From Caldilineales bacterium (GTDB lineage Bacteria > Chloroflexota > Anaerolineae > J102), in NCBI GenBank assembly GCA_019695115.1, contig JAIBAP010000017.1, forward strand, positions 8,416 to 72,415: a DNA stretch of 64,000 nucleotides. Reading direction: 5' to 3'. Below, piece after piece: positions 22,592 to 61,752 of this stretch. A program made the translations under genes and the position numbers. Within the stretch, counting starts at the first letter, position 1, and every line of letters begins with the position of its first letter. The notes under the pieces are model-generated. The model ran no database searches, was not told the origin of the DNA, and saw nothing but the letters and a program-made list of their open reading frames with translations.

Positions 22592-22657
22592 GATTGGAGA
22601 TTAGAGATTGGAGATTGGCGCCAATCTCCAATCTCTAATCTCCAATCTCCAATCTCC
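22592..22657. repeat. Perfect palindrome built from CTCCAAT/GATTGGAG heptamers
   Basis: gattggagattagagattggagattggcgccaatctccaatctctaatctccaatctcc. Confidence 0.7.
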
Positions 22658-22668
22658 ACCCCCACCCT

Positions 22669-23400
22669 ATGAACCTCACCAACCGCGTCACCCTCATCAC
22701 CGGCGCCGCCCAGCGGGTAGGCCGGGTGATCGCCCTCACCCTGGCCGGGCGCGGCGCCCACATCGCCTTCACCTATCTCGATGACTCCGAGCCGTGGCGC
22801 CAGACCCTGGCCGAGATCGAGGCCGCGGGCGTGGGCGCTATGGCCCTGCCGCTGAACGTTTTGCACCCGGAGCAGCCCCAGGCGGTGGTGGATGAGGTGG
22901 TCGCCCACTTTGGCCGCCTGGATGTGCTGGTCAACAACGCCTCGGTCTGGCTCACGGCCCCGTTTAGCTCCATCAGCTATCAAGCCTGGCGCACGGCCAT
23001 CGATGTGAACCTGACCGGGCCATTTTTGTGCAGCCAGGCTGCGGCCCGCCCCATGCAGGCCCAGGGCGAAGGCGTCATCCTCAACCTCACCGACCTCTCC
23101 GCCTTCCAGACCTGGCCGGGCTACGCCCATCATGCCGCCAGCAAAGCAGGATTGGTCGCGCTGACGCGAGTAATGGCCGCAGAACTGGCCCCGACCATCC
23201 GCGTCAACGCCATCGCCCCCGGCACCGTCCTGCTCCCGCCCAATGCCTCGGACGAGAAGCGGCGCTGGGCCGAGCAGAACTCGCTGCTCAAGCGCGTCGG
23301 TTCGCCCGAGGATGTGGCCCGGACGGTGGTCTTTTTGATCGAGATGGACTTTGCCACCGGGGCCGTCTATTTCATGGACGGCGGGCGGGCGCTGGTTTGA
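22669..23400 (+). CDS. SDR-family short-chain dehydrogenase/reductase
   Basis: TGAAQRVG cofactor motif, NNAS, and catalytic YxxxK (YAHHAASK). Confidence 0.85.
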   Translation: MNLTNRVTLITGAAQRVGRVIALTLAGRGAHIAFTYLDDSEPWRQTLAEIEAAGVGAMALPLNVLHPEQPQAVVDEVVAHFGRLDVLVNNASVWLTAPFSSISYQAWRTAIDVNLTGPFLCSQAAARPMQAQGEGVILNLTDLSAFQTWPGYAHHAASKAGLVALTRVMAAELAPTIRVNAIAPGTVLLPPNASDEKRRWAEQNSLLKRVGSPEDVARTVVFLIEMDFATGAVYFMDGGRALV

Positions 23401-23414
23401 AGGAGCGAACGCCT

Positions 23415-23702
23415 ATGCACATCATCGAACTCCTGCGCATTCGCTGCCACCCCGGCCGCCGCGCTGACTTCCTGGACAGGGATGCGGCGGTGTGGACGCC
23501 CGCCCTGGCCCGACATCGCGGCTTTCTGGGCAAAGAGGTCTGGCCCAGCCGCGAAGACCCCGATCAAGTCCTTCTGGTGGTGCGATGGGCGTCGATGGAG
23601 AGCTTTCAATCCTTCCCGATGGATCGCTGCGCCGAGTTGTCGGCGATGATGGACGACGTGCAGGCCGACATCAGGTGTGAAGTCTACGAAACGGCAGATT
23701 GA
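23415..23702 (+). CDS. Small ABM/Dabb-like (stress-responsive alpha-beta barrel) protein
   Basis: 95 aa, ATG 23415. Pattern resembles antibiotic-biosynthesis-monooxygenase-like small proteins. The family assignment is tentative. Confidence 0.4.
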   Translation: MHIIELLRIRCHPGRRADFLDRDAAVWTPALARHRGFLGKEVWPSREDPDQVLLVVRWASMESFQSFPMDRCAELSAMMDDVQADIRCEVYETAD

Positions 23703-23793
23703 CCAGCCGCGGGAAGCCTCTGCCCCCTGCACTTGCCGGTGCGGGCGCGGTAACCACGGTCTGGCGCTGGCGTCGCCGGATTGTCGTCGGCGC

Positions 23794-24606
23794 TCAGGGC
23801 AAAGCCGCCAGCGCCTGTTCCCAGTTGCGCTTCATCCCATCCTGCACCAACAACACCGCCGACTCGCGCGCCGCCCTTTCGCCACCATCCGTCACCTCCT
23901 CCCCTGCCACCACTGGCAACGTCCGATAGCCGGCCTTGTTCAGAAGCCCGGCCCGTCTTCTGGCCCGTTCGACATCATTGGCATCGATGACAGACGAAAC
24001 CTCGACCGCCAGATACAGTTCCAGGGCTTCGTCGGCGCGACGAAGTTGCCCCCGCACCAGCAAATCCAGCGGCACGAGATACTGCATCTCCGCCTCGGTC
24101 AACCGCTGTTCCAGGTCAGCTTCCAGGTCCTGCAACGGCACCACGCGCGTCTTGCGCAAGAGTGAGCCAAAGTAGGCGAAGGCTTTGTCGCGGTACTCCA
24201 TCTCCAGTAGTTTGCCCGTGTTCTTGCCGACCCGAATCACCAGCTTCTCGACCGTGGCTTCGGTGCGCTTCTGCGCCTCGGCCAACTCAAGCACCACCAT
24301 TTCCAGACGGTCCAGGCGCTGCTCGGTGCGCTTCTGCGCCTCGGCCAATTCCTCCAGGCGTTGCTCAGTGCGCTTCTGCGCCTCGGCCAGTTCATGAACC
24401 ACCATTTCCAGGCGGTCCAGGCGCTGCTCGCTGCGCTTCTGCGCCTCGGCCAGATCCCGTATGGCCTTCCACACGGCGTTGATATCTTCTCGTCTCACCG
24501 CCAACTCGGCGCGCATACTTTCCCGGATCGCTTCAGCGAACTCCAGCATAGGCATTTGCAGATCTTGGGGCAGCTTGCGAACGGCAGCGGCGTAACTCAT
24601 ATTCAC
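23794..24606 (-). CDS. DUF3782-like protein with N-terminal coiled-coil repeat array ([13 protein letters not shown] x4)
   Basis: Visible tandem DNA repeats at 24280-24470 encode the heptad array. The C-terminal region …[26 protein letters not shown]… is PD-(D/E)xK-like. Confidence 0.5.
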
Positions 24607-24676
24607 TCCGTGACGACATCAGTATAGCCGAATCCATGCCCATTGCCAAGCCCCACCGTCCCCCCCATCCACCTCC

Positions 24677-24712
24677 CGGAACCCGGAACCCGCAACACGG
24701 AACCCGAAACCC
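24677..24712. repeat. GGAACCC heptamer repeat
   Basis: ggaacccggaacccgcaacacggaacccgaaacccc in a divergent promoter region. Confidence 0.55.
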
Positions 24713-24713
24713 C

Positions 24714-26135
24714 ATGCCCCCCCACGACGCCATCATCGTCGGCTCCGGCCCCAACGGCCTGGCCGCGGCCATCGTCCTCGCCCAGGCCGGGCGCAAGGTG
24801 CTGGTGCTAGAGGCCGCCGACACGGTCGGCGGCGGCATGCGCTCGGCCGAGCTGACCCTGCCGGGCTTCACCCACGACATCTGCTCGGCCATCCATCCGC
24901 TGGGGATGGGGTCGCCCTTCCTCAAAACCTTGCCGCTGGCTGAATACGGCTTGCAGTGGATCCAGCCCGACCTGCCCCTGGCCCACCCGCTGGACGATGG
25001 TTCGGCTGTGGCCCTGGCGCAATCTCTGGACGAGACCGCCGCCTCTATCGGTCGCGATGGCCGGGCCTGGAAACGGCTGGTGGGGCCAGTGGCCGCCGAT
25101 TGGGAGCGGCTGGCGCCCATCATCCTCGGCCCGCTGCCGGCCCCCGGCCACGCCCTCACCCTCACCTCCTTTGGCCTGCGCGCCCTCTGGCCGGCGCGCC
25201 GGCTGGCGCAAACCGTCTTCCGAGAGCCGCGGGCGCGCGCCCTCTTCGCCGGCCTATCCGCCCACGCCATGATCCCGCTCGACGACGTACTCACCGCCTC
25301 GTTTGGGATCGTGCTGGGCATACTGGCCCATGCCGTCGGCTGGCCCCTGCCGCGCGGCGGCGCCCAGGCCATCCCCAATGCCCTGGCCGCCCACCTGCGC
25401 CATCTCGGCGGCGAGATCGAAACCGGCTGCGAGGTCAAGGCGCTGGCCGAGCTGCCGCCCAGCCGGGCCATCCTGCTCGACATCGCCCCCAAAGCCTTCC
25501 TGCGGTTGGCTGGCGACCGGCTGCCGCCCGGCTACCGCCGCCAACTCGAAGGCTATCGCTACGGCCCCGGCGTGTTCAAGACCGACTATGCCCTGTCTGG
25601 GCCTGTCCCCTGGCGGGCGGAAGAAGCCCGGCGCGCGGGCACCGTCCATCTGGGCGGGACGCTGCCCGAAATCGTCGCCTCTGAGCGAGCTGTGGCCCGC
25701 GGCCAGCACCCCGATGCTCCCTACGTGCTCATCAGCCAACAAAGCCTGTTCGATCCGAGCCGCGCCCCGGCCGGCTGCCACACCCTGTGGGCCTATTGCC
25801 ATGTGCCCAATGGCTCGACCATCGACCGAACCACCGCCATCGAAACCCAGATCGAACGCTTCGCCCCCGGCTTTCGCGACCTCATCCTGGCCCGGCACAC
25901 GCACAACACCGCCGAAATGGAAGCCTACAACCCCAACTATGTCGGCGGCGACATCAACAACGGCGTCCAGGACTTGCGGCAGCTGTGGACGCGTCCCACC
26001 CTGCAGCGCAACCCCTACACCACGCCGCTGCCGGGCGTCTTTCTCTGTTCATCAGCTACGCCGCCGGGGGGCGGGGTGCACGGGATGTGCGGCTATCATG
26101 CGGCGCAGGCGGCATTGCGCTGGCTGAAGGGATGA
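24714..26135 (+). CDS. NAD(P)/FAD-dependent oxidoreductase, phytoene-desaturase (CrtI)-like family
   Basis: N-terminal AIIVGSGPNGLAAAIVLAQAG…VLE. Size and C-terminal pattern of COG1233. Start at ATG 24714 (MPPHDAII). Confidence 0.8.
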   Translation: MPPHDAIIVGSGPNGLAAAIVLAQAGRKVLVLEAADTVGGGMRSAELTLPGFTHDICSAIHPLGMGSPFLKTLPLAEYGLQWIQPDLPLAHPLDDGSAVALAQSLDETAASIGRDGRAWKRLVGPVAADWERLAPIILGPLPAPGHALTLTSFGLRALWPARRLAQTVFREPRARALFAGLSAHAMIPLDDVLTASFGIVLGILAHAVGWPLPRGGAQAIPNALAAHLRHLGGEIETGCEVKALAELPPSRAILLDIAPKAFLRLAGDRLPPGYRRQLEGYRYGPGVFKTDYALSGPVPWRAEEARRAGTVHLGGTLPEIVASERAVARGQHPDAPYVLISQQSLFDPSRAPAGCHTLWAYCHVPNGSTIDRTTAIETQIERFAPGFRDLILARHTHNTAEMEAYNPNYVGGDINNGVQDLRQLWTRPTLQRNPYTTPLPGVFLCSSATPPGGGVHGMCGYHAAQAALRWLKG

Positions 26136-26171
26136 AGAGGCCCATCTCTGCCCCGCGCCCGGCCCGAAAAA

Positions 26172-27876: not shown

Positions 27877-28964
27877 ACCCATCCCACCTCTACCCCGTCA
27901 TCCTGGCCGGCGGTGTGGGCAGCCGTCTGTGGCCCCGCAGCCGCCGCCGCACCCCCAAGCAATTCCTCGATCTGGCCGGGACCGGCCGCACCCTCTTGCA
28001 GGCCGCCTTCGACCGTATGGCGCCGCTCGTCCCTGCCGGGCAGGTCTACGTCGTCACCAACGCCGAATACGCGGGGACGGTGGCCGCGCAATTGCCCGAC
28101 CTGCCCGCGGCCAACATCCTGCGCGAGCCGGCCGCCCGCGGCTCCGCCGCCGCCATCGGCCTGGCCGCCATCCACCTCCAGGCCCGCGACCCCCAGGCAG
28201 TCATGGCCGTGCTCACGGCCGACCATCTCATCGCCGAGGACGAAACCCTACGCCAGATCCTGGTCGGGGCCGCCGAGCTTGCCCAGGAGGGCGTCCTCAT
28301 CACCCTGGGCATCCGGCCCACCTATGCCGAGACCGGCTACGGCTACATCGAGATGGGCGAGGGGCTGGGCGCCTTTGGCGGCCACCCCGCCCACCGGGTG
28401 ATCAGCTTCCGCGAGAAGCCCGACCAGGCCACGGCGGCCGCGTTTCTGGCTGCGGGCAACTATGCCTGGAACAGCGGCATGTTCGTCTGGCGCGTCGATG
28501 CCATCCTCTCCGAGTTCGAGCGCCAGCTCCCGCAACACCACCTGGCCCTCATCGGCCTGGCCGCCGCCCTGGGCGGAGAGGACGAGCCTGCCGCCTTCGA
28601 CCGCTTCTGGCTGCCGCTTCCCGGCAACATCAGCATCGACTACGGCATCATGGAAGGCGCTCGCGGCGTCGCCGTCTTCCCGGCCGACCTGGGCTGGAAC
28701 GACATCGGTTCGTGGGCGGCCCTGCTGGAAGTCCTGCCCAAAGACGAGGCCGGCAATGTGACGCATGGCCGTCACCTCGGCGTCGACAGTCGCAACGTCC
28801 TCGTCTACTCGCCCGACCGTCTGGTGGCCACCATCGGTCTGCAAGACATGGTCATCGTCGACGCCGGCGACGTCCTCCTCGTCATGCCCGCGGCCCGCGC
28901 CCAGGATGTGAAAGCCCTCCTCTCAGCCCTACGCGCCCGCGGATGGGATGAGGTGATGGAGTAG
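27873..28964 (+). CDS. manC: Mannose-1-phosphate guanylyltransferase (GDP-mannose pyrophosphorylase)
   Basis: N-terminal VILAGGVGSRLWP nucleotidyltransferase motif. Left-handed beta-helix C-terminal region. Confidence 0.85.
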   Translation: MNPSHLYPVILAGGVGSRLWPRSRRRTPKQFLDLAGTGRTLLQAAFDRMAPLVPAGQVYVVTNAEYAGTVAAQLPDLPAANILREPAARGSAAAIGLAAIHLQARDPQAVMAVLTADHLIAEDETLRQILVGAAELAQEGVLITLGIRPTYAETGYGYIEMGEGLGAFGGHPAHRVISFREKPDQATAAAFLAAGNYAWNSGMFVWRVDAILSEFERQLPQHHLALIGLAAALGGEDEPAAFDRFWLPLPGNISIDYGIMEGARGVAVFPADLGWNDIGSWAALLEVLPKDEAGNVTHGRHLGVDSRNVLVYSPDRLVATIGLQDMVIVDAGDVLLVMPAARAQDVKALLSALRARGWDEVME

Positions 28965-29190
28965 CAGGTGGCAAGTGGCAGGTGGCAGGTGGCAGGTGGC
29001 AAGTGGCAGGTGGCAAGTGGCAGGTGGCAAGTGGCAGGTGGCAAGTGGCAGGTCGCAGGTGGCAGGTGGCAGGTGGCAGGTCGCAGGTGGACGTTGACTG
29101 TTGATTGTTGATTGTTGACTGTTGATTGTTGCCCCCACTCCCTTCGGCAAACCCGCCAACCGCCCTTGTCTACTTGTCTACCTGTCTACC
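28964..29190. repeat. Long intergenic heptamer array (GGTGGCA/GGTCGCA then GTTGATT/GTTGACT then CTTGTCTAC)
   Basis: gcaggtggcaagtggcaggtggcagg…, then gttgactgttgattgttgattgttgactgttgattgttg, then cttgtctacttgtctacctgtctacc. Lies between convergent genes. Confidence 0.7.
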
Positions 29191-30141
29191 CCTTATCTCC
29201 ACCGCGTGCCCGTAGGCATGGCGATAGGTCTCGAAGATGAGTTGGCAGAGCGAGCCACGGTCGGGCCAGGGAAACGCATCGGCATGGCGTAGGAGGTCGG
29301 GGTCGGCGCGGTCGATCAGCTGGGCGGTCTTGCGATAGATGGTGACGATGGCATCCGCCACTGCTACCATGTCGCGGCCGTCGTACACCTTGCCCACGTG
29401 CCGGTTGTGTTCGCCCACCACCGGCAGCAGCCGCAATGAGGGCGGGGCCTGGGTCTGGCCCCACTGCCGGGCGATGTCGAGCACCTGCTCGTTCACCGCC
29501 CACACATGCTCCAGCAGCTGATAGGTGTTCCACTCGCCGTGCCACGGCTCGCCCATGATCTCGGCCTCGGTCATCCCCGCCACACTGTCCATGACCTGAT
29601 TGTAGACGAACAACAGCCAGCGCCTCAGCCCCTGCTTTCCCAGGCGCTCGCAACTGCCCAGGTAGGCATCCACCTCCCCCACCGCCGCGGCGTAGGCATC
29701 GTTCACCGCCCTCACCCACCCGGCCAGCGTCGCGCCGCCGTCTGCCTGGTCTGGGGATGGCGCCTTTGCCTGCCATTCGACATCGCTCAGGCGCTCCAAC
29801 TGCGCCATCAGCCGCGGCGCCGTCGCCACCCCCTGCTCCATCAGCGCCTCGAAACTCAGTTCGGGGCTGATTGACGCCGGCGCCGCCGCTGACAGCGCCG
29901 CTGCCAGGGCCAGATCATCCGCCAGCCGGGCGGCCAGAACCTCCTGCGGGGAGACGCCGGCGAGGACGGGTGCAGTCCACTCTGCCGGCGAGAGGAGCGA
30001 GAGACTCTCCCACAAGGCCTGGCGGCAGGCCTGGAAGGTGGCGAGCGGGTGGGTGGAGGAGCTGGGGGAGGACATGGCTGTGCCTGCGAGAGGAGGGAAG
30101 GATAGGAGGGGCAGTATCCGGCGCGAGCGGCGCGGTGTCAA
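29170..30141 (-). CDS. Hypothetical protein (DinB/YfiT-like four-helix bundle suspected)
   Basis: Conserved His residues (…HVWAVN…, …HAYGH…). Start could be 30141 or the ATG at 30075. Confidence 0.45.
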   Translation of the reverse strand: MTPRRSRRILPLLSFPPLAGTAMSSPSSSTHPLATFQACRQALWESLSLLSPAEWTAPVLAGVSPQEVLAARLADDLALAAALSAAAPASISPELSFEALMEQGVATAPRLMAQLERLSDVEWQAKAPSPDQADGGATLAGWVRAVNDAYAAAVGEVDAYLGSCERLGKQGLRRWLLFVYNQVMDSVAGMTEAEIMGEPWHGEWNTYQLLEHVWAVNEQVLDIARQWGQTQAPPSLRLLPVVGEHNRHVGKVYDGRDMVAVADAIVTIYRKTAQLIDRADPDLLRHADAFPWPDRGSLCQLIFETYRHAYGHAVEIRGRQVDK

Positions 30142-30328: not shown

Positions 30329-31582
30329 ATGTCTACCCAGCCCAATCGCCTGCCCTGGATCATCGGCGCCGTCCTTGCCGGCCTGTTTGTCTTCCTCTGC
30401 GCCCTGGTTGTCATCGTCGGCGCCGCCCTGGTTCCCTTCATGGCGCGCCGCGACAGCGCCCCCGAGACCGCGCGCGAGATGGTCATCCCGCAGCCGCAAC
30501 GCCCGGCCGACGCCGCCACCCCTGCGCCCGCGCCCACCCTGCCGCCCATCGACCCCAGCACCGACCAGGAAACGGCGATCTACACCCGCATCTACGAGTT
30601 CGCCAATCCCAGCGTCGTGGCCGTGCGCACACTCGACGCCAACGCCGCGCAGCAAGCCCCCGACCTCGATCCGTTCTTCCTCGACACGGGCGAAGGTTCA
30701 GGCTTCGTCTACGATGCCAGCGGCCACATCATCACCAACCGCCATGTGATCGCCAACGCCGGCAAGGTGGTGGTCCAATTTGCCGACGGCGCCCAGGCCC
30801 CAGCCGAGATCGTCGGTTCGGACCGTGACAGTGATCTGGCCGTGCTCAAGATCGACCCGACCGGCTTCGACCTGAACCCCCTACCCATTGGTGACACCGA
30901 TACGCTCAGAGTCGGCAGTCGCGTCATGGTCATCGGCAACCCCTTTGGCAATGCCAACACCCTCACCACCGGCATCATCTCGGCCCTGGGCCGACAGATC
31001 AGCCTGCCCGATTCGCAATTCACCCTGCCCGAAGTCATCCAGACCGACGCTGCCATCAACCCCGGCAACAGCGGCGGGCCGATGCTCAACGCCGACGGCG
31101 AAGTCATCGGCGTCGCCTTCATGATCCAGTCTCAATCTGGCTCCAGCGCCGGTATCGGCTTTGGCATCCCCGCCTACTTCGTCGAGCGCGTGGCCGACGC
31201 CATCATCGCCAACGGCGCCTATCAGCACCCCTGGTTAGGCGTGCGCGGCCAAAGTCTCTCGCCCTTCGCCAGCCGCGAACTGAATCTGCCGGTGGACCGG
31301 GGCGTGCTCGTGGTCGAGGCCATCGACAATGGCCCTGCCGCCAAGGCGGGGTTACGAGGCGGGGATAAGGAGGTGGAGGTCGAGGGCTTTGCCTTCACCA
31401 TTGGCGGCGACATCATCACCGCCATCGACGGCCAGCCCGTGACCGTCTTCGACGACCTGCTAGCCTATCTCAGCCGCTACACCGAACCCGGCCAACAGGT
31501 GACGCTGACCATCGTGCGCGACCGTGAAACGATGGAGCTTACCGTCACCCTCGAAGCGCGGCCGACCAGCCTGGGAGAGTAG
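30329..31582 (+). CDS. S1C (HtrA/DegP-like) serine protease with PDZ domain
   Basis: N-terminal TM. Trypsin-fold catalytic motifs (HVI…, D…, GNSGGP). C-terminal PDZ. Confidence 0.85.
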   Translation: MSTQPNRLPWIIGAVLAGLFVFLCALVVIVGAALVPFMARRDSAPETAREMVIPQPQRPADAATPAPAPTLPPIDPSTDQETAIYTRIYEFANPSVVAVRTLDANAAQQAPDLDPFFLDTGEGSGFVYDASGHIITNRHVIANAGKVVVQFADGAQAPAEIVGSDRDSDLAVLKIDPTGFDLNPLPIGDTDTLRVGSRVMVIGNPFGNANTLTTGIISALGRQISLPDSQFTLPEVIQTDAAINPGNSGGPMLNADGEVIGVAFMIQSQSGSSAGIGFGIPAYFVERVADAIIANGAYQHPWLGVRGQSLSPFASRELNLPVDRGVLVVEAIDNGPAAKAGLRGGDKEVEVEGFAFTIGGDIITAIDGQPVTVFDDLLAYLSRYTEPGQQVTLTIVRDRETMELTVTLEARPTSLGE

Positions 31583-31678
31583 GCAAGGAAACAGGTAGAC
31601 AAGTAGACAAGTAGACAAGTAGACAAGGCGTTGGCGGCGGATGGCGTTCCTTCGTTGATTGTTGATTGTTGACTGTTC
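31583..31678. repeat. GTAGACAA x4 plus GTTGATT x3 heptamer/octamer array
   Basis: gtagacaagtagacaagtagacaagtagacaag … gttgattgttgattgttgactgtt. Confidence 0.7.
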
Positions 31679-32761
31679 TCACCGCCTCTCCAACTCGCCC
31701 CCACAGCTGGCCCGGTAATAGGCCGCTTCCTGCTCGAAGCCGGAGGCGGCCTTTTGTTTGGTTTCGTCACCGATGGCCGCGGCTTTGCCCAGCTGCTCGA
31801 CCATGCCGGCCGTGCCCCAGTAGCGAGGGAGAACGAGGAGGGGGTCGCCCATCGCCCGTTCTTCCTTGCCCAGCGGGATCCAGTTATACATGCTCGGCCC
31901 ACGGGCGAAGACGGTGAAGCCGAGCTTGTAGCCGGCCGCGCGCGCCACCTCCACCGTCTTCTTGGTGAAATTCCCGCCCGGCCACACGAAGACCACCGGC
32001 CGGTAGCCAACATGTTTTTCCAGGATGGGGATGGGGCCGAAGATCTCCTCGCGGATCTGCTCGATCGGTGTGCTGGGCAGCATGTAGAGATGCCGCAGCC
32101 CGTGTGCCTGTACATCCAGCCGGCCCGTGGCGTGCAACCGCTCCAGTCGCTCCCACAGCCCCGCCCGCCTGTCTGTATCGGCGATGATCCAGCCTAGCGT
32201 CACCGTCCAGTCGTATTGCTCCAGGATGGGCAGGAAATAGCCCTCGACCGTGCCCAAGCGCCGGTCGTCTACGATCAACAACAGCGATCGCTCGGGGATG
32301 CGGGCGTTTTCTTCCAGAAAGGCCGCCGCCTGCGCGGCCGTCACCGTCTGATAGCCCAGCCGCCTGGCCTCGGCCATCGTCTGGCGGAAATAGGCCGGCG
32401 ATACGCCCTGCCGGCCGCCTGCGCCCACTCCCTCGCCCACGCGATGGTACATGATCGGCACAAGGATCGTGCCGGGAGGGCTGTTCTGTGGGTCCCAGCG
32501 CCGGCGCAAATAGTCGCAAACGTCATCTACATAGCTTTCGGGGCGGACGCCGCGCAGCAGATGTTTGGACGGGAACGGGATCGGCGGGGTGAGATCGCCC
32601 GCATTGGCTGGGGCGATGGTGGGGGTTGGCGAGGGGAGTGGCGTCGCTGCGGCGGCGCCAGGGGCCAAAGCGGCGCCACCAGACAGCACCGCCAGCAGAC
32701 AGCCGATGGCAATGGTAGATGCAGACCGCAAGCGGTGCTTGAAGACAAGATACAAACTCAT
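31679..32761 (-). CDS. Polysaccharide deacetylase (NodB-homology) family protein, secreted
   Basis: Signal peptide. MYHRV and …FVWPGG… motifs of the CE4/polysaccharide deacetylase fold. ATG at rc 32759-32761. Confidence 0.75.
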   Translation of the reverse strand: MSLYLVFKHRLRSASTIAIGCLLAVLSGGAALAPGAAAATPLPSPTPTIAPANAGDLTPPIPFPSKHLLRGVRPESYVDDVCDYLRRRWDPQNSPPGTILVPIMYHRVGEGVGAGGRQGVSPAYFRQTMAEARRLGYQTVTAAQAAAFLEENARIPERSLLLIVDDRRLGTVEGYFLPILEQYDWTVTLGWIIADTDRRAGLWERLERLHATGRLDVQAHGLRHLYMLPSTPIEQIREEIFGPIPILEKHVGYRPVVFVWPGGNFTKKTVEVARAAGYKLGFTVFARGPSMYNWIPLGKEERAMGDPLLVLPRYWGTAGMVEQLGKAAAIGDETKQKAASGFEQEAAYYRASCGGELERR

Positions 32762-44600: not shown

Positions 44601-44609
44601 TATGATAAT

Positions 44610-44687
44610 ATGACACAAATGGGAGAAACACAGATAATACTTTTATCTGCTTTATGCGACTGTTGCGCTGGTGATCTGGCTAAATGA
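44610..44687 (+). CDS. Candidate 25-aa small ORF (MTQMGETQIILLSALCDCCAGDLAK), copy 2
   Basis: Tandem duplicate of the previous element. Cys-rich C-terminus (CDCC). Confidence 0.25.
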   Translation: MTQMGETQIILLSALCDCCAGDLAK

Positions 44688-44695
44688 TAGCAATG

Positions 44696-44748
44696 GGAGA
44701 ATCTCCAATCTCCAATCTCCAATAACCAATAACCAATCTCCAATAACC
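44696..44748. repeat. CTCCAAT / AACCAAT heptamer array
   Basis: atctccaatctccaatctccaataaccaataaccaatctccaataacc. Confidence 0.6.
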
Positions 44749-44757
44749 ACCCCCCCC

Positions 44758-45891: not shown

Positions 45892-46062
45892 AGTTGCGTG
45901 TTGCGTGTTCCGTGATGCGTGTTGCGTGTTGCGTAGCGCCTGCGGCGCAAACGCCTCCCGGAACACGTAGCACGAACCCCGAACCCCGAAGCACGAAACA
46001 CGGAACACGTAGCACGAACCCCGAACCCCGAAGCACGGAACACGGAACACGGAACACTCCCC
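45892..46062. repeat. Palindromic GTGTTGC/GTGTTCC … GGAACAC heptamer array (171 bp)
   Basis: gttgcgtgttgcgtgttccgtgatgcgtgttgcgtgttgcgtagcgcctgcggcgcaaacgcctcccggaacacgtagcacgaaccccgaaccccgaagcacg… with repeated 30-bp subunits. Confidence 0.7.
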
Positions 46063-50296: not shown

Positions 50297-50461
50297 GGTG
50301 CGTGGTGCGTGGTGCGTGGTGCGGCAACCGCACTTGCGGAGAAAGAGGAAAGATTACCAGGCCTTTGTGTTTTCTTTGTGCTCTTTGTGTCTTTGTGTTA
50401 AGTACGATTGCAGTGCTATTGCATATTGCCGCACGGTATGTTTGGCAATATGCAATAGCAC
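50297..50461. repeat. Intergenic heptamer arrays (GGTGCGT x4, CTTTGTG x5) plus 18-bp perfect inverted repeat
   Basis: ggtgcgtggtgcgtggtgcgtggtgcgg. ctttgtgttttctttgtgctctttgtgtctttgtg. IR GTGCTATTGCATATTGCC-13nt-GGCAATATGCAATAGCAC at 50413-50461, AT-rich. Confidence 0.65.
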
Positions 50462-51106: not shown

Positions 51107-51630
51107 GATCGAAGCTCCTTGTGGACAAAAACAGAGCCAGGGTCGCCTGGCGCGTTCAACAACGCTAACAATCTGTAGCATAGAGCAATCAGGTCACGTC
51201 TGCCAGTGCCGGAAGTCATATCTGGGCCATGTGCGCGTGCTTACCGTGACACTGTACGCAGCAAATCGCAGCCGTGTTTCGCGCCGCAAAGCCTGTTCGC
51301 TGCCAACGCTGCCGACAGGAACGGCGGCGGCGCCAACGACCCCGACCTCGCCTGCGACCAGGCTCCAAACGACAGCTTCACTCCCTCCACCCCCCTTTTC
51401 CCGCCCCCCTTCCGCCCATTTGCGCCTGGGCGATGGCTGCGCGTATCATCCCCGCACCACACAATCACACAGCAGGTGCAACGGCTGAGCGCAGGACGTG
51501 GTGCGCAGATCGGCGGTAGCAAGCCGATGCGGTGGGGTTTCGCTGATGACGAAGTGGCTGGGTGCGTATCGCTGCCTGGCCTGGAGCCGGAGCAACCTGC
51601 CCCGATGCAGGACAAAACAGGAGGTCTACG

Positions 51631-54462
51631 ATGAGCCTTTGGCGAGGCAGTATCGACGACGACAGCCTGACTGCGGCCTGGCAGGAACTGGCCGAGCAGG
51701 CGGCGCAGCAAGCAGCACAGAACAAACCCTGGCTGCTAAAGCTGCTGGCAAATCAAGGCGCGGCCCTGGCCGCGCGCTACGCCCTTTGGAAAGACCGGCT
51801 GCGGCGGTTGCGACAGGGCGAACGCAGACGCTTGCAGCGCCAACTCGGCGTTGGCCTGGCCGGGGCGGCGCTGCTGCTGGCGCTCAGCGGCGCGCCCACG
51901 GCCCGCGCCGGCGGGCCGATCGTGGCCGATGGCGCCACCTGCACCCTGGCCGAGGCCATCGTTTCGGCCAATACCGACGCCGCCTATGGCGGCTGCACCA
52001 CCGGCTACGCCGGGGCCGACACCATCGACCTGCAAGCGGATGTGACCCTGACGGCGGCGAACAACTCGACCTATGGCCCCACCGGGCTGCCGGTGATCAC
52101 GACGCCGATCACGATCGCGGGCAACGGCCACAGCATCAGCCGCAGCAGCATCTCGGACTTCCGCATCCTGGCGGTGGGGAGCGGGGGCGACCTGACCCTG
52201 AACAGCGCCACAGTGAGCAGCGGGGTAGCCATGGGCAGTCTACCTGATGGAGGGGGCGGCGGCATCTTTGTCACGGCCGGGCTGCTGACGCTGACGAACA
52301 GCACCCTCTCCGGCAACTCGGCCGTCGTCGGCGGCGGCATCTTTGCCCGCGATGCCACGGTGGCGGTCTCGAACAGCACCCTCTCCGGCAACTCGGCCGG
52401 CTTCGGTGGTGGCATCTATGCCGAGTCCGCCACGGTGACGGTCTCGAACAGCACCCTCTCCGGCAACTCGGCCAGCTTGGGCGGCGGCGGCATCTTTGCC
52501 ATCTACGCCACGGTGGCGGTCTCGAACAGCCCCCTCTCCGGCAACTCGGCCGGCGACGGCGGCGGCGGCATCCTTGCCCGCTACGCCACGGTGACGGTCG
52601 CGAACAGCACCCTCTCCGGCAACTCGGCCGGCTGGGGCGGCGGCATCTTTGCCTACTTCGGCACGGCGACGATTGCCAACAGCACCCTCTCCGGCAACTC
52701 GGTCACCTACCTCGGCGGTGGCGTCTATGCCCGCTCCGCCACGGTGGCGGTCTCGAACAGCACCCTCTCCGGCAACTCGGCCAGTGACGGCGGCGGCATC
52801 TATGCCGGCTACGCCACGGTGACAGTCTCGAACAGCACCCTCTCCGGCAACTCGGCCAGCGCTGGCGGCGGCATCTATGCCCGGTACTCCACGGTGATGG
52901 CGCAGAACAGCATTTTCTCTGGCAACTCGGCCAAGTGGGGCGGCGGCATCTATGTCCAGAACAGCACGGCGACGGTTGCGAACAGCACCCTCTCCGGCAA
53001 CTCGGTCACCTACCTCGGCGGCGGCATCTATGCCCGCTCCGCCACGGTGACGGTCTCGAACAGCACCCTCTCCGGCAACTCGGCCAGCGATGGCGGCGGC
53101 ATCTATGCCTACACCGCCACGGTGACGGTATCACGCAGCCTGGTCAGCGGCAACACGGCCGCTTCGTCAGGCAATGAAATATACGCAACTAGCGTCGCGC
53201 TCGCCTCTAGCTACAACCTCTTCGGGCATGACGGCGAGACCAATGCCCAGGCCTTTACCAATTTCATCCCCTCCGGCACGGACATCACCGCCACCTCGGA
53301 TGGAACCACCCCCACCGCCCTGGCCGCCATCCTGACCACGCCCCTGGCCGACAACGACAGCACCATTCTCGCCGGCGCCCCGCCGGGCGCGGTCGTCCAG
53401 ACGCTCGCCCTCCCCGCCGGCAGCCCCGCCATCGACGCTGCGCCCTCCGCCGACTGTGTCGCTCCCATCTTCGACTTCGACCAGCGCGGCAAGACCCGCA
53501 ACGTCGATGGCAACGCCAGCGCTTCTGCCAACGAGTGCGACATCGGCGCTTTCGAACTGCAAACCGAAGTCGTCCCCCGCATCATCGTCCACAAGCAAAC
53601 GCTGCCCAACTACGACCCCACCGAGTTCCAGTTCAAGCTGCGGGGGCCGGTGGGCCGCGACTTCAGCCTGGCCGACGACGAACCGCACAGCACCGGCCAG
53701 ATTCCCGCCGGCATCTACACCCTGGAAGAGATCATGCCGTCTGGTTGGGACCCCGCCATCCCTCTCGACCAGATGACCTGCGACGATGGCAGTCCGCTTT
53801 CGGCCATCGACCTGGGGTCAGATGAGACGCTGGTGTGCCGCTTCCTCAACTACAAGCGGGGGAACATCATCGTCAAGAAGGCGACGATCCCGCCCGTCGC
53901 CGCCCCCAGCTTCGCCATGCGGCTGATCGACAACACCAGCCTGGCCAAGACCCAGTTCTCGCTGGCCAACGGCGGGCAGTTCGACACCGGCGCCATCACT
54001 TCTGTCCCCACCTACAAGCTGTTGGAGCCGGCGGCGACGCTGCCGGGCGGGTGGAAGAAGAAGAGCATCGCCTGCGACAACGGCTCGCCGGCCACGACCA
54101 TCGTCGTGCCGCCGGGCGGAACCGTGACCTGCACGGTGACGAACGAGAACAGTGCGCCGACGAACATCCTGCTGTCGAACGTCTGGGTGGCGGAGAACAA
54201 GCCTGTGGGGACGGTGGTGGGGACGCTGACTGCCAGCGATGCGATTGCCGGCGACACGCACACCTTCGCTTTCGTCGATGATGGCACGTCAGGGGCGAGC
54301 GGGAATGGCAGCTTCAAGATCGTGGGCAATCAGTTGCAGACGAATGCGGTCTTCGACTACGAGACGAAGACGAGCTACAACATCAAGCTGAAGGCGACAG
54401 ACACGGCGGGGCAGAGCAAGGTGAAGAACTTCGTGATCAAGGTGTTGGATAAGCCGGGGTAA
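51631..54462 (+). CDS. Secreted surface protein: Pmp-like parallel beta-helix repeats plus DUF11/CARDB-like domains plus C-terminal cadherin-like domain
   Basis: RBS AGGAGG plus ATG 51631. About 12 tandem NSTLSGNSA…GGGI(Y/F)A units. C-terminal …VAENKPVGTVVGTLTASD…FDYETKTSYNIKLKATD… cadherin motif. Confidence 0.7.
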   Translation: MSLWRGSIDDDSLTAAWQELAEQAAQQAAQNKPWLLKLLANQGAALAARYALWKDRLRRLRQGERRRLQRQLGVGLAGAALLLALSGAPTARAGGPIVADGATCTLAEAIVSANTDAAYGGCTTGYAGADTIDLQADVTLTAANNSTYGPTGLPVITTPITIAGNGHSISRSSISDFRILAVGSGGDLTLNSATVSSGVAMGSLPDGGGGGIFVTAGLLTLTNSTLSGNSAVVGGGIFARDATVAVSNSTLSGNSAGFGGGIYAESATVTVSNSTLSGNSASLGGGGIFAIYATVAVSNSPLSGNSAGDGGGGILARYATVTVANSTLSGNSAGWGGGIFAYFGTATIANSTLSGNSVTYLGGGVYARSATVAVSNSTLSGNSASDGGGIYAGYATVTVSNSTLSGNSASAGGGIYARYSTVMAQNSIFSGNSAKWGGGIYVQNSTATVANSTLSGNSVTYLGGGIYARSATVTVSNSTLSGNSASDGGGIYAYTATVTVSRSLVSGNTAASSGNEIYATSVALASSYNLFGHDGETNAQAFTNFIPSGTDITATSDGTTPTALAAILTTPLADNDSTILAGAPPGAVVQTLALPAGSPAIDAAPSADCVAPIFDFDQRGKTRNVDGNASASANECDIGAFELQTEVVPRIIVHKQTLPNYDPTEFQFKLRGPVGRDFSLADDEPHSTGQIPAGIYTLEEIMPSGWDPAIPLDQMTCDDGSPLSAIDLGSDETLVCRFLNYKRGNIIVKKATIPPVAAPSFAMRLIDNTSLAKTQFSLANGGQFDTGAITSVPTYKLLEPAATLPGGWKKKSIACDNGSPATTIVVPPGGTVTCTVTNENSAPTNILLSNVWVAENKPVGTVVGTLTASDAIAGDTHTFAFVDDGTSGASGNGSFKIVGNQLQTNAVFDYETKTSYNIKLKATDTAGQSKVKNFVIKVLDKPG

Positions 54463-54475
54463 GGGGGGGAGGGGG

Positions 54476-54546
54476 AAGTAGGGAGTAGGAAGTAGGGAGG
54501 ACGCCCTCCTTACTCCCTACTCCCTACTCCTTACTCCTTACTCCCC
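54476..54546. repeat. Palindromic GTAGGGA heptamer array
   Basis: gaagtagggagtaggaagtagggaggacgccctccttactccctactccctactccttactcc. Confidence 0.7.
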
Positions 54547-54553
54547 CGATCCC

Positions 54554-57659: not shown

Positions 57660-59510
<1,851 letters not shown>

Positions 59511-59584
59511 ATTCTTTCAGAATGACACAAATAAAAGGAAACACAGATGCTACGTTCCCTGAGAGATCGGCGGCAAAAAACTCA

Positions 59585-59700
59585 AATCGCACCCAGGCGT
59601 ACTCGCTCCGCCATCCACGGAACCCGGAACGCCTCGCACGTAGGCGTGCTCGCTCCACCAGCCACGGAACACGGAACACGGAACACGGAACAAACCTCAC
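59585..59700. repeat. GGAACCC / GGAACAC heptamer array
   Basis: …ccacggaacccggaacgcctcgcacgtaggcgtgctcgctccaccagccacggaacacggaacacggaacacggaacaaacc. Confidence 0.65.
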
Positions 59701-61514
59701 CCCCCCATCAACTCCTGCTCCAACGCCTCCTCGATCTGCGTCTGCACCTCGAAGATGCGGCGGTAGATGCCGTCGGTGTGGGCCAACAGGTCGGCGTGGC
59801 TGCCGCCCTGCACGATCCTGCCCTTGTCCAGCACCAGGATGAGGTCGGCGGTCATCACGGTTTGGATGCGGTGGGCGATGATGAAGGTGCTGCGCCCGGC
59901 CATGAGACGGCTCAACGCCTCCCGGATCTCGCCCTCGGTCTCGGTATCCACCGACGAGGTGGCGTCATCGAGGATGAGGATGCGCGGGTCGCGCAAGAGG
60001 GCGCGGGCGATGGCCACCCGCTGCTTCTGCCCGCCCGAAAGCGTGATCCCCTTCTCGCCCACCAGCGTGTTGTAGCCATCGGGGAAGCTGAGGATGCTGT
60101 CGTGGATGGCGGCGGCCTCGGCGGCAGCGATCACCTCATCCTGCGATACATCTCGGCCAACGCCGTAAGCGATGTTCTCGCCGATCGTGCGCGAGAACAA
60201 GAACGGCTCCTGCTCGACGATGCCGATCTGCGAGCGCAGGAAGTCGCGCGGGTAGTCCTTCAGCTCGACGCCATCCAGCCGGATGCTGCCGGCGGTGTAG
60301 TCGTAGAAGCGAGGCAGCAGATTGACGAGCGAGGTCTTGCCGGAGCCGGTGGAGCCGAGCAAGGCCACGCTCTGGCCGGGCGCGCAGTGGAAGCTGATGT
60401 GGTCGAGCACCGGCGCAGCCGCAGCATCGTAGGCAAAGCTGACATCTTCGAAGGCGATGTCGCCGCGCACAGGCGCCTGCGGCCGATGGCTGCCGGCAGT
60501 CAGCGGCTCCCGCTCCTCGGCGATGATCTCGGAGACGCGCCCGAACGAGACCAGCCCGGTGGAAGCCTGGACGATCAGTCTGCCCAGGTTGCGCATCGGC
60601 CAGATGATCCAGATCAGCATCCCGGCATAGGCCAGATATTCGCCCACGGTGATGCGGCCAGCAATGGCCATGAGGGCGGCGATGGTGAACCCGGCCAGCA
60701 TCTGGGCGCCGCAGAGGATGTCGGAGCTGGGCCAAAACAACGAGTGCATCAGCATCAGCCGCCGGCCCATGCGGAACTTCTGATCGTTCTCGACCTCGAA
60801 CTTGTCGCGTTCGTAGGCTTGCCGGGCAAAGGCTTTGACCACCCGCACCCCGCTCAGATTCTCTTGCAACACGGTCGATAGCCTGGCTTCCTGCTCCTGA
60901 TAGGTTTCGTAGCGATTGGAGACGCGGCGGAAGAAGAAGATGGAGACGACGATGACCGGGGGGATGACGATGATCGAGATCAGGGCCAGCGTCAGGTCGA
61001 GATAGGCGATGGCGAGGAAGTTGACGAAGAAGAGCAGGAGGATGCGGCCCAAGCCGATGGCCTGGTCGGCATAGAAGCGGCGCACGGCCTCCACATCCGA
61101 CGAGCAGCGTTGGATCAGCTCGCCGGTCTGCATGCGATCGTGATAGCTGAAGCTCAGGCGCTGGAGGTGGTCGAAGAGATAGTTGCGCAGCCGTTGGGCC
61201 GTGCGTTCGGCTGTTTCGGCCGACCAGCGCCCGCTGAGGAAGGTGAAAGCGCCTTCGAGCAGCGCCAGGCCGACGAAGCCCAGGCCCACCAGGGCCAGGA
61301 TCTGCCAGCCGACGCCCTTCCCCAGTACATCGTCGACGAAATAGCTCAGCAGCAGGTAGGTGGCGGTCTTGGCCAGCGCGGCCAGCCCCAGCAAGAGGGT
61401 GGCAGCCAGATAGAGGCCCTGGTAGCCGGCCATCAATCGCCATAGCCCGACCAGACGGCGGCGTCCCAGGATATTCTTGAGGTCGAAAGTGGTGCGTTGA
61501 CTGGTGGAGAGCAC
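59697..61514 (-). CDS. ABC exporter, fused permease-ATPase (second half of heterodimeric pair)
   Basis: TM domain then Walker A GSTGSGKTS, LSGGQKQ signature, Walker B LILDDATS. Start probably GTG at rc 61512-61514 (VLSTSQRTTFDLKNILGRRR); the track's longer N-terminus runs through intergenic repeats. Confidence 0.85.
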   Translation of the reverse strand: MLSTSQRTTFDLKNILGRRRLVGLWRLMAGYQGLYLAATLLLGLAALAKTATYLLLSYFVDDVLGKGVGWQILALVGLGFVGLALLEGAFTFLSGRWSAETAERTAQRLRNYLFDHLQRLSFSYHDRMQTGELIQRCSSDVEAVRRFYADQAIGLGRILLLFFVNFLAIAYLDLTLALISIIVIPPVIVVSIFFFRRVSNRYETYQEQEARLSTVLQENLSGVRVVKAFARQAYERDKFEVENDQKFRMGRRLMLMHSLFWPSSDILCGAQMLAGFTIAALMAIAGRITVGEYLAYAGMLIWIIWPMRNLGRLIVQASTGLVSFGRVSEIIAEEREPLTAGSHRPQAPVRGDIAFEDVSFAYDAAAAPVLDHISFHCAPGQSVALLGSTGSGKTSLVNLLPRFYDYTAGSIRLDGVELKDYPRDFLRSQIGIVEQEPFLFSRTIGENIAYGVGRDVSQDEVIAAAEAAAIHDSILSFPDGYNTLVGEKGITLSGGQKQRVAIARALLRDPRILILDDATSSVDTETEGEIREALSRLMAGRSTFIIAHRIQTVMTADLILVLDKGRIVQGGSHADLLAHTDGIYRRIFEVQTQIEEALEQELMGG

Positions 61515-61589
61515 GATAAAACCTGCAACAGGTGATGACAAAACGACGAGGCAGAAAGCCCACACGACCAAGGGCAGAACATTTATTCT

Positions 61590-61752
61590 ACAAGGAAAGG
61601 GGGCGGTTGCCAAGTGGCAGGTCGCAGGTCGCAAGTTGCAGAGCCTGTCCTGAGCACAGCGAAGGATGGCAGAGCCTGTCCTGAGCACAGCGAAGGATGG
61701 CAGGTGGCAGGTTCTTCGTTGATTGTTGACTGTTGATTGTTGACTGTTGAGA
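61590..61752. repeat. Composite repeat: GGTCGCA/GGTGGCA heptamers, 32-bp unit x2, GTTGATT/GTTGACT heptamers
   Basis: caagtggcaggtcgcaggtcgcaagttgcag, then (agagcctgtcctgagcacagcgaaggatggc) x2, then gttgattgttgactgttgattgttgactgttgag. Same families as at 28964-29190. Confidence 0.7.

Follow-up and report, generated by a model that had tools for sequence, protein, structure and literature searches.

Short tandemly repeated repetitive (STRR) sequences, which consist of heptanucleotide units, are said to have been described in cyanobacteria by Mazel and colleagues in 1990. Heptamer repeats are present near start codons in Nostoc PCC 7120 (bioRxiv 10.1101/2022.06.06.494920), TAACTGA direct repeats in marine Beggiatoaceae, cyanobacteria, and Bacteroidetes (MacGregor 2015, PMC4679880), and G-rich GGGNATC heptamer repeats in Xanthomonas and Nostoc (Rehm et al. 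2015, PMC4692102). An excess of intergenic heptamers is general across prokaryotes (2019, PMC6344855), and for the spread of heptamer repeats between loci and taxa there was "no mechanism evident" (MacGregor 2015, PMC4679880). A full-text literature search retrieved no description of such arrays in Chloroflexi. In this study, we analyse tandem arrays of 7- and 8-nt units in the intergenic gaps of a 64,000-nt stretch of DNA from a Caldilineales bacterium (assembly GCA_019695115.1, contig JAIBAP010000017.1, positions 8,416 to 72,415), which is termed the window in the following. The window has a GC content of 65%, and the best named homologues of its proteins, as obtained by homologue searches, come from Caldilineales or Caldilineae metagenome-assembled genomes of the Chloroflexota.

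As judged from sequence comparison, these elements are probably satellite arrays of 7- or 8-nt units that occupy Caldilineales intergenic spacers and derive from a clade-wide library of units; they are called STRR-like here because the host is not a cyanobacterium. According to this description, replication slippage would drive whole-unit turnover, and the GGCAGGT/GTTGAYT arrays at 28961-29131 and 61609-61750 would be two old, locally maintained instances of the library rather than copies of a transposable composite. Inverted complementary arrays would encode hairpins of 20-30 bp, the arms of which would be held in pairing by template switching, selection, or both. Hairpins at stop codons might then shape 3' ends, processing, or coupling, and a G-poor, A+C-rich arm followed by a C-run might serve as an unstructured leader for initiation without a Shine-Dalgarno sequence at the next gene.

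Families of arrays and their turnover

Genes were placed by third-codon-position GC content, Pfam domain positions, and ATG context, arrays were detected with Tandem Repeats Finder and a separate period-7/8 scan, and chance expectations for two-unit patterns were taken from dinucleotide-preserving shuffles. Three homologue searches and twelve contig look-ups provided orthologous gaps at graded distances in relatives, which are designated by L numbers. Arrays of 7- or 8-nt units were found in about half of the intergenic gaps of at least 50 nt (approximately 16 of roughly 30, hand count over the 64-kb window), and no array was seen inside any confirmed coding region of the window. All arrays named in an earlier sequence-only reading of this DNA were recovered by both methods within a few bases of where they had been placed; Tandem Repeats Finder reported period 7 with 3.4-18 copies and 83-100% matches, and period 8 for two families. 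Besides the loci listed below, the recovered arrays lie at 22587-22658, 44700-44749, 54473-54545, 16220-16295, 50297-50323, and 50373-50398, and a larger family, CACGGAA/GTTGCGT, occurs in the same window at 1881, 3054, 17200, 19747, 24675, 45893, and 59663.

The claim that heptamer families are common to distant gaps is borne out by the two-unit patterns, the counts of which far exceed the shuffle expectation. Two consecutive GTTGAYT units were matched 9 times at 3 loci (0.01 expected), GGCARGTSGCARGT 21 times at 2 loci (0.33 expected), GTAGACAAGTAGAC 5 times at two loci in opposite orientation (0.00 expected), and two consecutive CTCCAAT units 10 times (0.00 expected), the latter search exposing an extra site at 15534-15547. 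Among 12 strict arrays, 4 same-family pairs were located at distant loci, compared to 0.97 expected under a conservative null (p = 0.017). The three loci that share the GTTGAYT family comprise the following features, where calls are those of Tandem Repeats Finder or of the scan:

28961-29090, plus strand: heptamer array (GCAGGTG / GCAAGTG / GCAGGTC) of 18 units, called as GCAGGTG, 18 copies, at 28964-29090; the first unit, variant GTAGCAG, carries the TAG stop codon (28962-28964) of an NTP-transferase (ManC-like) gene; orthologous arrays in L125 and L127
29093-29131, plus strand: heptamer array (GTTGACT / GTTGATT) of 5.6 units, 4 nt past the GCAGGTG array; called as GTTGATT, 5.6 copies, at 29093-29131
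29165-29190, plus strand: octamer array of 3 units of CTTGTCTA (called as 3 copies at 29165-29189), read on the minus strand as GTAGACAAG; includes the TAG stop codon (29170-29172) of a convergent DinB-like gene
31587-31627, plus strand: GGAAACAG followed by an octamer array of 4 units of GTAGACAA, beginning 5 nt past the stop codon (31580-31582) of an HtrA-like protease gene; called as AGTAGACA, 6 copies, at 31578-31627
31654-31677, plus strand: (GTTGATT)2 GTTGACT between convergent genes; called as GTTGATT, 3.4 copies, at 31654-31677
61585-61613, minus strand: promoter-like TTGGCA-17-TAGAAT of an ABC transporter gene
61609-61636, plus strand: 4 units (GGCAAGT / GGCAGGTC / GCAAGTT), adjoining, on its upstream side, the promoter-like site at 61585-61613 (ABC transporter gene, minus strand); called as GCAGGTC, 3.6 copies, at 61617-61641
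61638-61703, plus strand: perfect tandem duplication of a 31-nt unit (GCAGAGCCTGTCCTGAGCACAGCGAAGGATG), 2.1 copies, splitting the GGCAGGT array
61699-61712, plus strand: 2 GGCAGGT units, the rest of the split array
61718-61750, plus strand: array (GTTGATT GTTGACT) of 2.4 copies; called as GTTGAYT, 4.7 copies, at 61718-61750

Turnover by whole units can be read from the closest relative. Between the window and L125 (98% nucleotide identity over 13.3 kb) there are 10 indels, and since 6 of these are exact 7- or 8-nt units within arrays, whole-unit gain and loss, a pattern characteristic of replication slippage, is the dominant indel process in this comparison. In the gap between the ManC-like and DinB-like genes, L125 has all three arrays with different unit counts and variant positions, and L127 (about 80% nucleotide identity) carries (GGCAGGC/GGCAAGT)n, GTCGATTGTTGACT, a C-run, and three units of CTGTCTAC, so that the pattern (GGCAGGY)n-(GTYGAYT)n-C-run-(CTGTCTAC)n is kept in both. 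Because the arrays occupy the same gap in L125 and L127, the composite at 28961-29190 is, on sequence comparison, an old one that was inherited in place while its dominant unit drifted. Between the HtrA-like and deacetylase genes (31587-31677), a 16-nt unit (GTAGACAAGGAAACAA) is present three times in L125, together with one extra GTTGAYT unit; L127 has just one GTAGACAG and one GTTGACT there, and L128 lacks a GTTGAYT array and has two to three GTAGAC units. The gap between the amidohydrolase and the short-chain dehydrogenase/reductase (SDR) gene holds the CTCCAAT family in the window and in L256, units of the CCAATAA type in L255, and ACGCAAC-type units instead in L257 (75% identical). These comparisons show that arrays can be traced in their own gap through speciation with drifting units, and that at larger distances a single unit or another family is found in their place.

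The same families, including their variants, are shared between loci and between species. All three GTTGAYT loci of the window mix C and T units, whereas about 90% of the GTTGAYT arrays in other organisms, among the matches listed, are pure C or pure T, and both GGCAGGT loci carry the variants GGCAAGT and GGTCGCA. L131 represents a different species, with a transporter 81% identical, and yet exact strings of 20-37 nt, including the order of unit variants, recur between it and the window in non-orthologous gaps next to unrelated genes. Thus, TCTCCAATCTCCAATCTCCAATAACCAATAACCAATC is located upstream of the VWA/CoxE gene in the window and upstream of a diacylglycerol-kinase-like gene in L131, the array at 44700-44749 sharing a 37-nt string with the region upstream of an unrelated L131 gene; CCAATCTCTAATCTCCAATC is located upstream of the SDR gene in the window and upstream of a class II aminoacyl-tRNA synthetase gene (Pfam tRNA-synt_2) in L131; CAAGGAAACAGGTAGACAAGTAGACAAGTAGACAAG follows the HtrA-like gene in the window and lies between the GAPDH and PGK genes in L131, where the 31587-31627 array has a 37-nt exact match to the non-orthologous gap L131:16626-16662; and TCTCACGTTTCACGCCTCAC is common to both as well. 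The arrangement (CTCCAAT)n-TACCAAT-(AACCAAT)2 is found in L256 in yet another gap. Three higher-order motifs are confined to Caldilineales loci among 257 loci examined, and exact window-family matches were obtained for 3 of 9 arrays in about 70 kb of relatives compared to 0 of 209 in unrelated genomes (Fisher p = 5e-5). At the level of sequence, the unit families are shown to form a clade-wide library with conserved variant arrangements in non-orthologous gaps. The proposal that the loci are not independent products of slippage therefore stands: mixed C/T units, common variants, and the 20-37-nt matches in non-orthologous gaps all speak for it.

Conservation across phyla was considered as a further candidate, given the many matches, among those listed in genome and metagenome scans, to three-unit GTTGAYT and GGCAGGT patterns in many phyla and over a range of GC contents, for which there is no control heptamer. 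It was rejected: none of the 209 arrays in these organisms exactly matches a window family other than the one searched, and GTTGAYT and GGCAGGT arrays in other phyla are for this reason best read as coincidences in very large databases, where any heptamer array will probably turn up.

Placement at gene ends and predicted hairpins

The remaining arrays of the window, including those that form inverted pairs, and the start codons preceded by a C-run, two of which lie in relatives, are as follows:

22592-22658: inverted arrays (GATTGGA)4 / (TCCAATC)5, filling the space from the amidohydrolase stop codon to the C-run and ATG of the SDR gene
16220-16295: inverted arrays (CGTGAAG)4 / (TTTCACG, CCTCACG)4.7 between two minus-strand genes, a GNAT acetyltransferase and an OsmC gene
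19747-19842: inverted arrays (TGTTGCG)4 / (CACGCAA, CACGGAA)8 between the UbiD-like and E2 acyltransferase genes; main family
45893-46057: inverted arrays (GTTGCGT)6 / (CGGAACA and variants)14, then a C-run and ATG
54473-54545: inverted arrays (AGTAGGG) / (CTCCCTA) between convergent genes
44700-44749, plus strand: (CTCCAAT)3 (AACCAAT)2 CTCCAAT AACC, then a C-run and the ATG (44758) of a VWA/CoxE-like gene
15529-15553, plus strand: 2-3 units of GGAGATT, an additional CTCCAAT-family site that is absent from the sequence-only reading
50297-50323, plus strand: 3.9 units of GGTGCGT, in the sense direction (ACGCACC)n, just upstream of the start of a PspC-domain gene at 50274
50373-50398, plus strand: octamer array of 3.1 units of TCTTTGTG
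59663-59692, plus strand: 4.3 units of CACGGAA, in the sense direction (GTTCCGT)n, 5 nt past the stop codon of an ABC transporter gene
1929, 3099, 19850, 22669, 24714, 44758, 46065, 50274 (minus strand), L131:5015 (minus strand), and L132:21804: start codons in C-run context

With gene ends placed by hand, an array usually starts 0-11 nt from a stop codon, which is twice contained in the first unit (GTAGCAG at 28961 and GTAGACAAG at 29170), and ends 5-30 nt before the next start codon, where it is followed by a C-run (e.g. CTCCACCCCCACCCTATG, AACCACCCCCCCCATG) and no Shine-Dalgarno sequence. Starts of this kind (CCCC, 0-5 nt, ATG), often with CCC after the ATG, are accompanied by an upstream array. 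In hand counts, 11 of 11 arms beside a start codon are rich in A+C when read on the sense strand, and 11 of 15 arms beside a stop codon are rich in G+T. The exceptions comprise two cases of the GTAGACAA family, the CACAAAG array, and the GTTGATT array that follows the deacetylase gene. GGCAGGT and GTTGAYT after the ManC-like stop codon have the G+T-rich orientation, and the 61.6-kb arrays of both families are A+C-rich relative to the ABC transporter gene; both loci fit the rule. This keto/amino (G+T versus A+C) rule is valid for the heptamers and not for the GTAGACAA octamer family.

Three other readings were rejected. A rule for arm order based on purines and pyrimidines failed, and stop codons inside units as the cause of placement account for some families only. 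A CsrA-type (ANGGA) reading of CACGGAA, GGAAACA, and GATTGGA is inconsistent with the sense-strand orientation, and several families lack GGA. In a promoter scan, a unit-derived -35-like hexamer was found at the divergent gap only and at none of the convergent gaps: this hexamer, TTGACT, is part of a GTTGACT unit located upstream of the MgtE gene (61726-61754), with a spacing of 17 nt to GAGAAT. Since T and C units alternate here, a one-unit indel would exchange TTGACT for TTGATT.

Folding predicted long hairpins (z -5 to -10) for the inverted arrays at 16215-16300, 19745-19845, 22585-22662, 45890-46035, and 54470-54550. All of these except 45890-46035 were folded on both strands and gave hairpins on either with equal energies; G·U asymmetry between the strands pointed to no strand preference. 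The palindrome at 22592 has a 26-bp stem with z -10; values were -6.8 and -4.8 for 54473-54545 and -6.8 and -6.1 for 16220-16295. The palindrome had been taken to be perfect over 66 bp and in fact comprises 56 bp (22592-22647) with 28-nt arms and no spacer, its right arm running on unpaired to 22658. At the non-palindromic loci 29085-29195, 31575-31680, and 61604-61752, folding gave no significant predicted structure, and the non-palindromic GGCAGGT/GTTGAYT arrays may be neutral passengers.

Pairing between the arms is maintained through changes of units. Within the 22592 palindrome, the variant unit GATTAGA is mirrored exactly as TCTAATC. In L256 (amidohydrolase 88% identical), the hairpin in the gap between the UbiD-like and E2 genes is kept though the units have changed: on the left TGTTGCG became TATTGCG and on the right AACACG became AATACG, i.e. 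G-C to A-U, in at least 2 unit pairs. In L255 (93% identical), all linkers of the left arm are TT instead of AG and the core order ATTGG, ATTAG, ATTGG, ATTGG is retained; the contig stops at the palindrome centre, so the right arm is out of view. A 141-nt hairpin of GGTAGATT/AATCTACC octamers in L132 reaches z = -13. Correction of quasipalindromes by template switching is a mutational mechanism established in E. coli, and we infer that arm complementarity is kept by template switching between arms, by selection on the hairpin, or by both.

Within the description given above, an RNA-level role analogous to that of repetitive extragenic palindromic (REP) sequences and bacterial interspersed mosaic elements (BIMEs) is possible and is put forward tentatively.

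Several further observations were made on the genes and assemblies around the arrays. The E2 acyltransferase and amidohydrolase genes, which overlap by 4 nt in the window (21214-21217), are separated by a XisH/XisI gene pair in L256 (2657-3228) and L255 (870-1205). XisH and XisI are families characteristic of filamentous bacteria, cyanobacteria included, and heptamer arrays are known from these same groups. The L255 contig ends (2631) exactly where the palindromic array has its centre, and contigs of only 2.4-4.8 kb carry the top amidohydrolase homologues P0241-P0248; arrays appear to break short-read assemblies. Gene callers stretch genes over arrays: the longest open reading frames 24636-26135 and 59697-61760 both traverse arrays, and the pipeline call for L125 places the start of the amine-oxidase gene upstream of a CCCGGAA array. 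Judging from the ATG context and the location of Pfam domains, the genes themselves seem to begin at 24714 and about 61571. The practical consequence is that arrays appear to interrupt metagenome assemblies and mislead gene callers.

The sugar-utilisation stretch at approximately 4.0-11.6 kb (4000-11600), which encodes a LacI-type regulator, a sugar ABC transporter, and a GH127 arabinofuranosidase, has a lower GC content (57-60%), no heptamer arrays, and canonical Shine-Dalgarno sequences. It may have been acquired horizontally and is an internal negative control for the arrays.

Weighing of alternative explanations

A number of points weigh against the library of slippage-maintained arrays as described above. 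Slippage alone leaves the exact 20-37-nt strings in non-orthologous gaps of a species at 81% identity unexplained, and variant order matches across species, though unit number already differs between genomes that are 98% identical. The arm-wide linker change in L255 with retained core order is not predicted by unit-wise slippage. For the central part of the 61.6-kb gap, which comprises the GGCAGGT arrays and the 31-mers, nothing in the relative L130 can be aligned, and a partial insertion may therefore have occurred there. No polymorphism within the strain is seen in arrays that several assemblies cover, the beginnings and ends of genes were set by hand, and the RNA-level role is one that we infer only, by analogy. 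To account for the recurring strings, slippage has to be supplemented by copying between loci or by sequence-specific selection; the candidate sources of the shared strings are gene conversion or template switching between arrays on the one hand and such selection on the other.

The first of these additions can be extended to an explanation in its own right, namely ectopic copying without transposition, in which arrays of the same family would swap multi-unit tracts by gene conversion or inter-locus template switching, with the units serving as homology, and variants as well as neighbouring families would be spread in this way, giving rise to the shared library. It would account for exact matches with the same variant order in gaps that share no flank, for the mixed C/T units at all three GTTGAYT loci, and for the concerted linker change over the whole L255 arm. 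The matches lie between species, however, so that exchange within one genome would be insufficient, the tracts are near or below the usual minimum for RecA-dependent exchange, and no recombinant junction was observed; we regard ectopic copying as doubtful, though less so than the other alternatives.

Selection may also act on the units themselves, and so preserve identical units and arrangements at many genes, if a 5-nt core such as CCAAT or CTAAT with a 2-nt linker constitutes one of several tandem sites for a single-strand nucleic-acid-binding protein or another factor. Cores are conserved and linkers vary (CT, AA, TA) in the window, L131, L255, and L256, strand orientation at start codons is strict, and families are retained between species even though intergenic DNA outside the arrays, at orthologous positions, is not. 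Binding partners have been proposed for heptamer repeats of other phyla (PMC4679880; bioRxiv 10.1101/2022.06.06.494920). Functional sites of this type seem unlikely because at least 10 families would demand several factors or a loose specificity, and orthologous gaps exchange families or lose arrays without obvious consequence; moreover, no candidate protein was identified.

An improbable extension with wider consequences regards the arrays as clade-wide, sequence-defined RNA modules, in which an intercistronic hairpin would gate or couple translation or direct processing at genes without a Shine-Dalgarno sequence, and the families (5-nt core plus 2-nt linker) would be kept by a dedicated factor or by copying. 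The G+T-rich arm would then be placed at the stop codon and the A+C-rich, almost G-free arm with its C-run at the next start. If this were also true in cyanobacteria, Beggiatoaceae, and Bacteroidota, RNA modules would explain the prokaryotic excess of intergenic heptamers.

The sequence-only reading had favoured a composite dispersed element. Taken as mobile, this would be a single non-autonomous element built of GGCAGGT and GTTGAYT arrays, optionally together with GTAGACAA, that resembles a miniature inverted-repeat transposable element (MITE) and transposes into intergenic gaps. At the two composite loci, two families do follow each other in identical order and orientation, with a junction of 4-5 nt, and unit variants are common to the loci; mixed C/T units are rare elsewhere. 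The claim of identical composition holds for GGCAGGT followed by GTTGAYT and fails for the third family, CTTGTCTA, which is absent at 61.6 kb and at 31.6 kb lies on the other side and in the other orientation. The junctions are unlike (GGAC versus TCTTC), the GGCAGGT units number 18 at 28961 and 4+2 at 61.6 kb, and the 31-mer duplication is confined to one locus, with no further copies in the window and no counterpart in L130. A repeat search gave no terminal inverted repeats around 28900-29260 or 31540-31720 and, at 61540-61860, only a weak inverted pair of 10-11 nt and no terminal inverted repeats. No transposase family was detected among the roughly 50 open reading frames of the window scanned against Pfam.

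The 61.6-kb gap was also compared with that of relatives. In L130 and L254 (transporter 90% identical, MgtE neighbour kept), both arrays are absent, which could be taken to favour insertion. What is found between the conserved anchors, of which the right-hand one consists of the -10-like TAGAAT and the following sequence (TGTTCTGCC) that recur in relatives, is about 75 nt of other sequence and not a clean empty site. In these two relatives TCAATCAGAAGAC stands at the place of the window's TCAAC(AGTCAACAATCAAC)2GAAGAAC and, farther along, CCTGCGCGAC at the place of its (CCTGCGA)n, so that single-unit-like stretches keep the order of the window arrays. The sequence-only reading had held that absence from orthologous gaps, with no evidence of insertion and no cross-locus similarity beyond the unit, would speak against a dispersed element: the arrays are indeed missing from the orthologous gap and an insertion signature is lacking, but similarity between loci exceeds the unit. 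Among the matches listed, GGCAGGT-to-GTTGAYT adjacency was seen at 0 of 120 GTTGAYT loci and 0 of 120 GGCAGGT loci in other organisms, i.e. at none of 240. The junction pattern (GGCAGGTSGCAGGT, 0-30 nt, two GTTGAYT units) had zero metagenome matches in a collection that evidently does not contain the source contig and is thus uninformative for this genome. Together with the stability of the composite in one gap down to about 80% nucleotide identity, with units drifting in place, the lack of terminal inverted repeats and of a clean empty site means that a transposable composite is not supported by the sequences and is very improbable; we conclude that the arrays expand and contract locally. The interpretation offered by the sequence-only reading is thus partly supported.

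Three independent assemblies cover the 61.6-kb arrays and show them in identical form, as a fourth does for the array at 59663-59692, so these arrays are not assembly artefacts. Contingency (phase-variation) loci, in which changes in unit number would switch neighbouring genes via promoter geometry or leader length, are considered the least probable explanation, for although unit number differs between 98%-identical genomes and a GTTGACT unit gives the -35-like hexamer upstream of the MgtE gene, arrays are identical in the independent assemblies covering them, most lie after stop codons or between convergent genes with no predicted promoter, and the neighbours are housekeeping enzymes and transporters, not surface antigens.

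The window also contains other repeats. Between the two ABC transporter genes, the CACGGAA array adjoins a 47-nt repeat (1.9 copies, 86% identity) at 59587-59677. Relatives have quite different arrays in this gap: CATTCGT in L130, TTTCACG in L131, and GGTT, AGTCAAC, and a 14-mer in L132. Between the radical-SAM and VWA genes (44526-44701), an AT-rich 74-nt unit is present in 2.3 copies, each with a promoter-like TGACAC-N16-GATAAT; a related single copy (AATGACACAAATAAAAGGAAACACAGATGCTAC) at 59520-59552 on the plus strand runs antisense to an ABC transporter gene and aims into the 47-mer repeats and the CACGGAA array. Duplicated promoters are one possible identity of these elements, and a small-RNA promoter is another. 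Two stretches, 15462-15553 and 15607-15651, located upstream of a very long minus-strand open reading frame (11688-15719) without a Pfam match, contain G-rich 8- and 24-nt repeats (GGGGAGAC, GCAGGGAC) and a 16-nt repeat of 2.8 copies (CCACGGCCCGGCGACC). Coding repeats comprise a 75/153/303-nt periodicity (52295-53141) in the gene of a 966-aa protein with Chlamydia-PMP-type repeats and a cadherin domain (51562-54462), an in-frame 105-nt repeat of 1.8 copies (24263-24452) in a minus-strand gene without a Pfam match (23794-24606), and an in-frame run of GGTGGG-type hexamers (41489-41626) inside the open reading frame 41258-42640. An ARAGORN call of tRNA-Asp at 52506-52595 falls within the gene of the 966-aa protein and is probably spurious, as Rfam gives no support for it. 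At gathering thresholds, Rfam returned one tRNA as its sole match and no known RNA family over the arrays.

Comparison with known systems

Like STRR sequences, the Caldilineales arrays are tandem intergenic heptamers at many dispersed loci, drawn from a small set of families common to these loci and often located near start codons. GTTGACT arrays are abundant in Microcoleus, Tychonema, Calothrix, and Nostoc, among the matches listed in a genome scan, and we take GTTGACT to be a rotation of the reverse complement of STRR3 (CAACAGT). In contrast to the original STRR definition, which refers to a (heterocystous) cyanobacterium, the host is a Chloroflexota member with 65% GC, the unit library is specific to the clade (of 209 arrays from other phyla, 0 match a family exactly), many arrays are inverted pairs that form long hairpins, and GTTGAYT arrays mix C and T units where those elsewhere are largely pure.

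REP sequences and BIMEs are repetitive extragenic palindromes associated with transposase-like genes (REP-associated tyrosine transposases, RAYTs), with roles in mRNA 3'-end stability, termination, and translation. The arrays resemble them in being extragenic, in lying after stop codons or between convergent genes, and in their hairpins, very high copy number, and clade-specific families, and REP/BIME appears to be the best functional analogy. They differ in that the REP unit is an imperfect palindrome of 20-40 nt with a 5' GTAG, whereas the units described here have 7-8 nt, are not self-complementary, form hairpins only as inverted arrays, and contain GTAG in only 2-3 families. No Y1_Tnp (RAYT) match was obtained among the roughly 50 open reading frames of the window scanned by Pfam. 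With regard to evolution, the "library" model of eukaryotic satellite DNA states that related species share unit families which are amplified differently per locus, and the Caldilineales picture of common families and variant strings, differently amplified at each locus, resembles this model.

TAACTGA repeats agree with the arrays in their position just upstream of starts, with fixed orientation and at genes without an obvious Shine-Dalgarno sequence, in the presence of several heptamer families per gap and of one unit at many unrelated genes, in that close relatives may lack arrays in the same gap, and in having no evident spreading mechanism. Their units are different, however, and 169 direct sets with one indirect repeat (PMC4679880) contrast with 5 inverted pairs per 64 kb here. 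GGGNATC repeats are likewise over-represented in non-coding DNA, variable in unit number, and located about 50 bp or less from stop codons (sense) or upstream of open reading frames (antisense), but they have G-runs of at least 3, G-quadruplexes, and a four-unit preference, whereas GGTGGCA and GGCAGGT carry GG only and most families here are without G-runs. MITEs are short, non-coding, intergenic, and multi-copy as well, and unlike the arrays they have terminal inverted repeats, target-site duplication, a fixed length, and clean empty sites; the arrays are also unlike a clustered regularly interspaced short palindromic repeat (CRISPR) array, with 24-47-nt repeats and unique spacers, in that their 7-8-mers are contiguous without spacers.

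The class of elements is thus already known, and the arrays described here differ from published cases in how often inverted pairs occur, in their conserved higher-order strings, and in the high GC content. This Caldilineales lineage is an example from outside the cyanobacteria, with high GC and with relatives at graded distances, in which unit turnover, family replacement, two-sided pairing changes, and strict start-codon orientation can be read directly from the sequence. A vague phenomenon can in this way be turned into specific hypotheses that are testable in a cultured relative.

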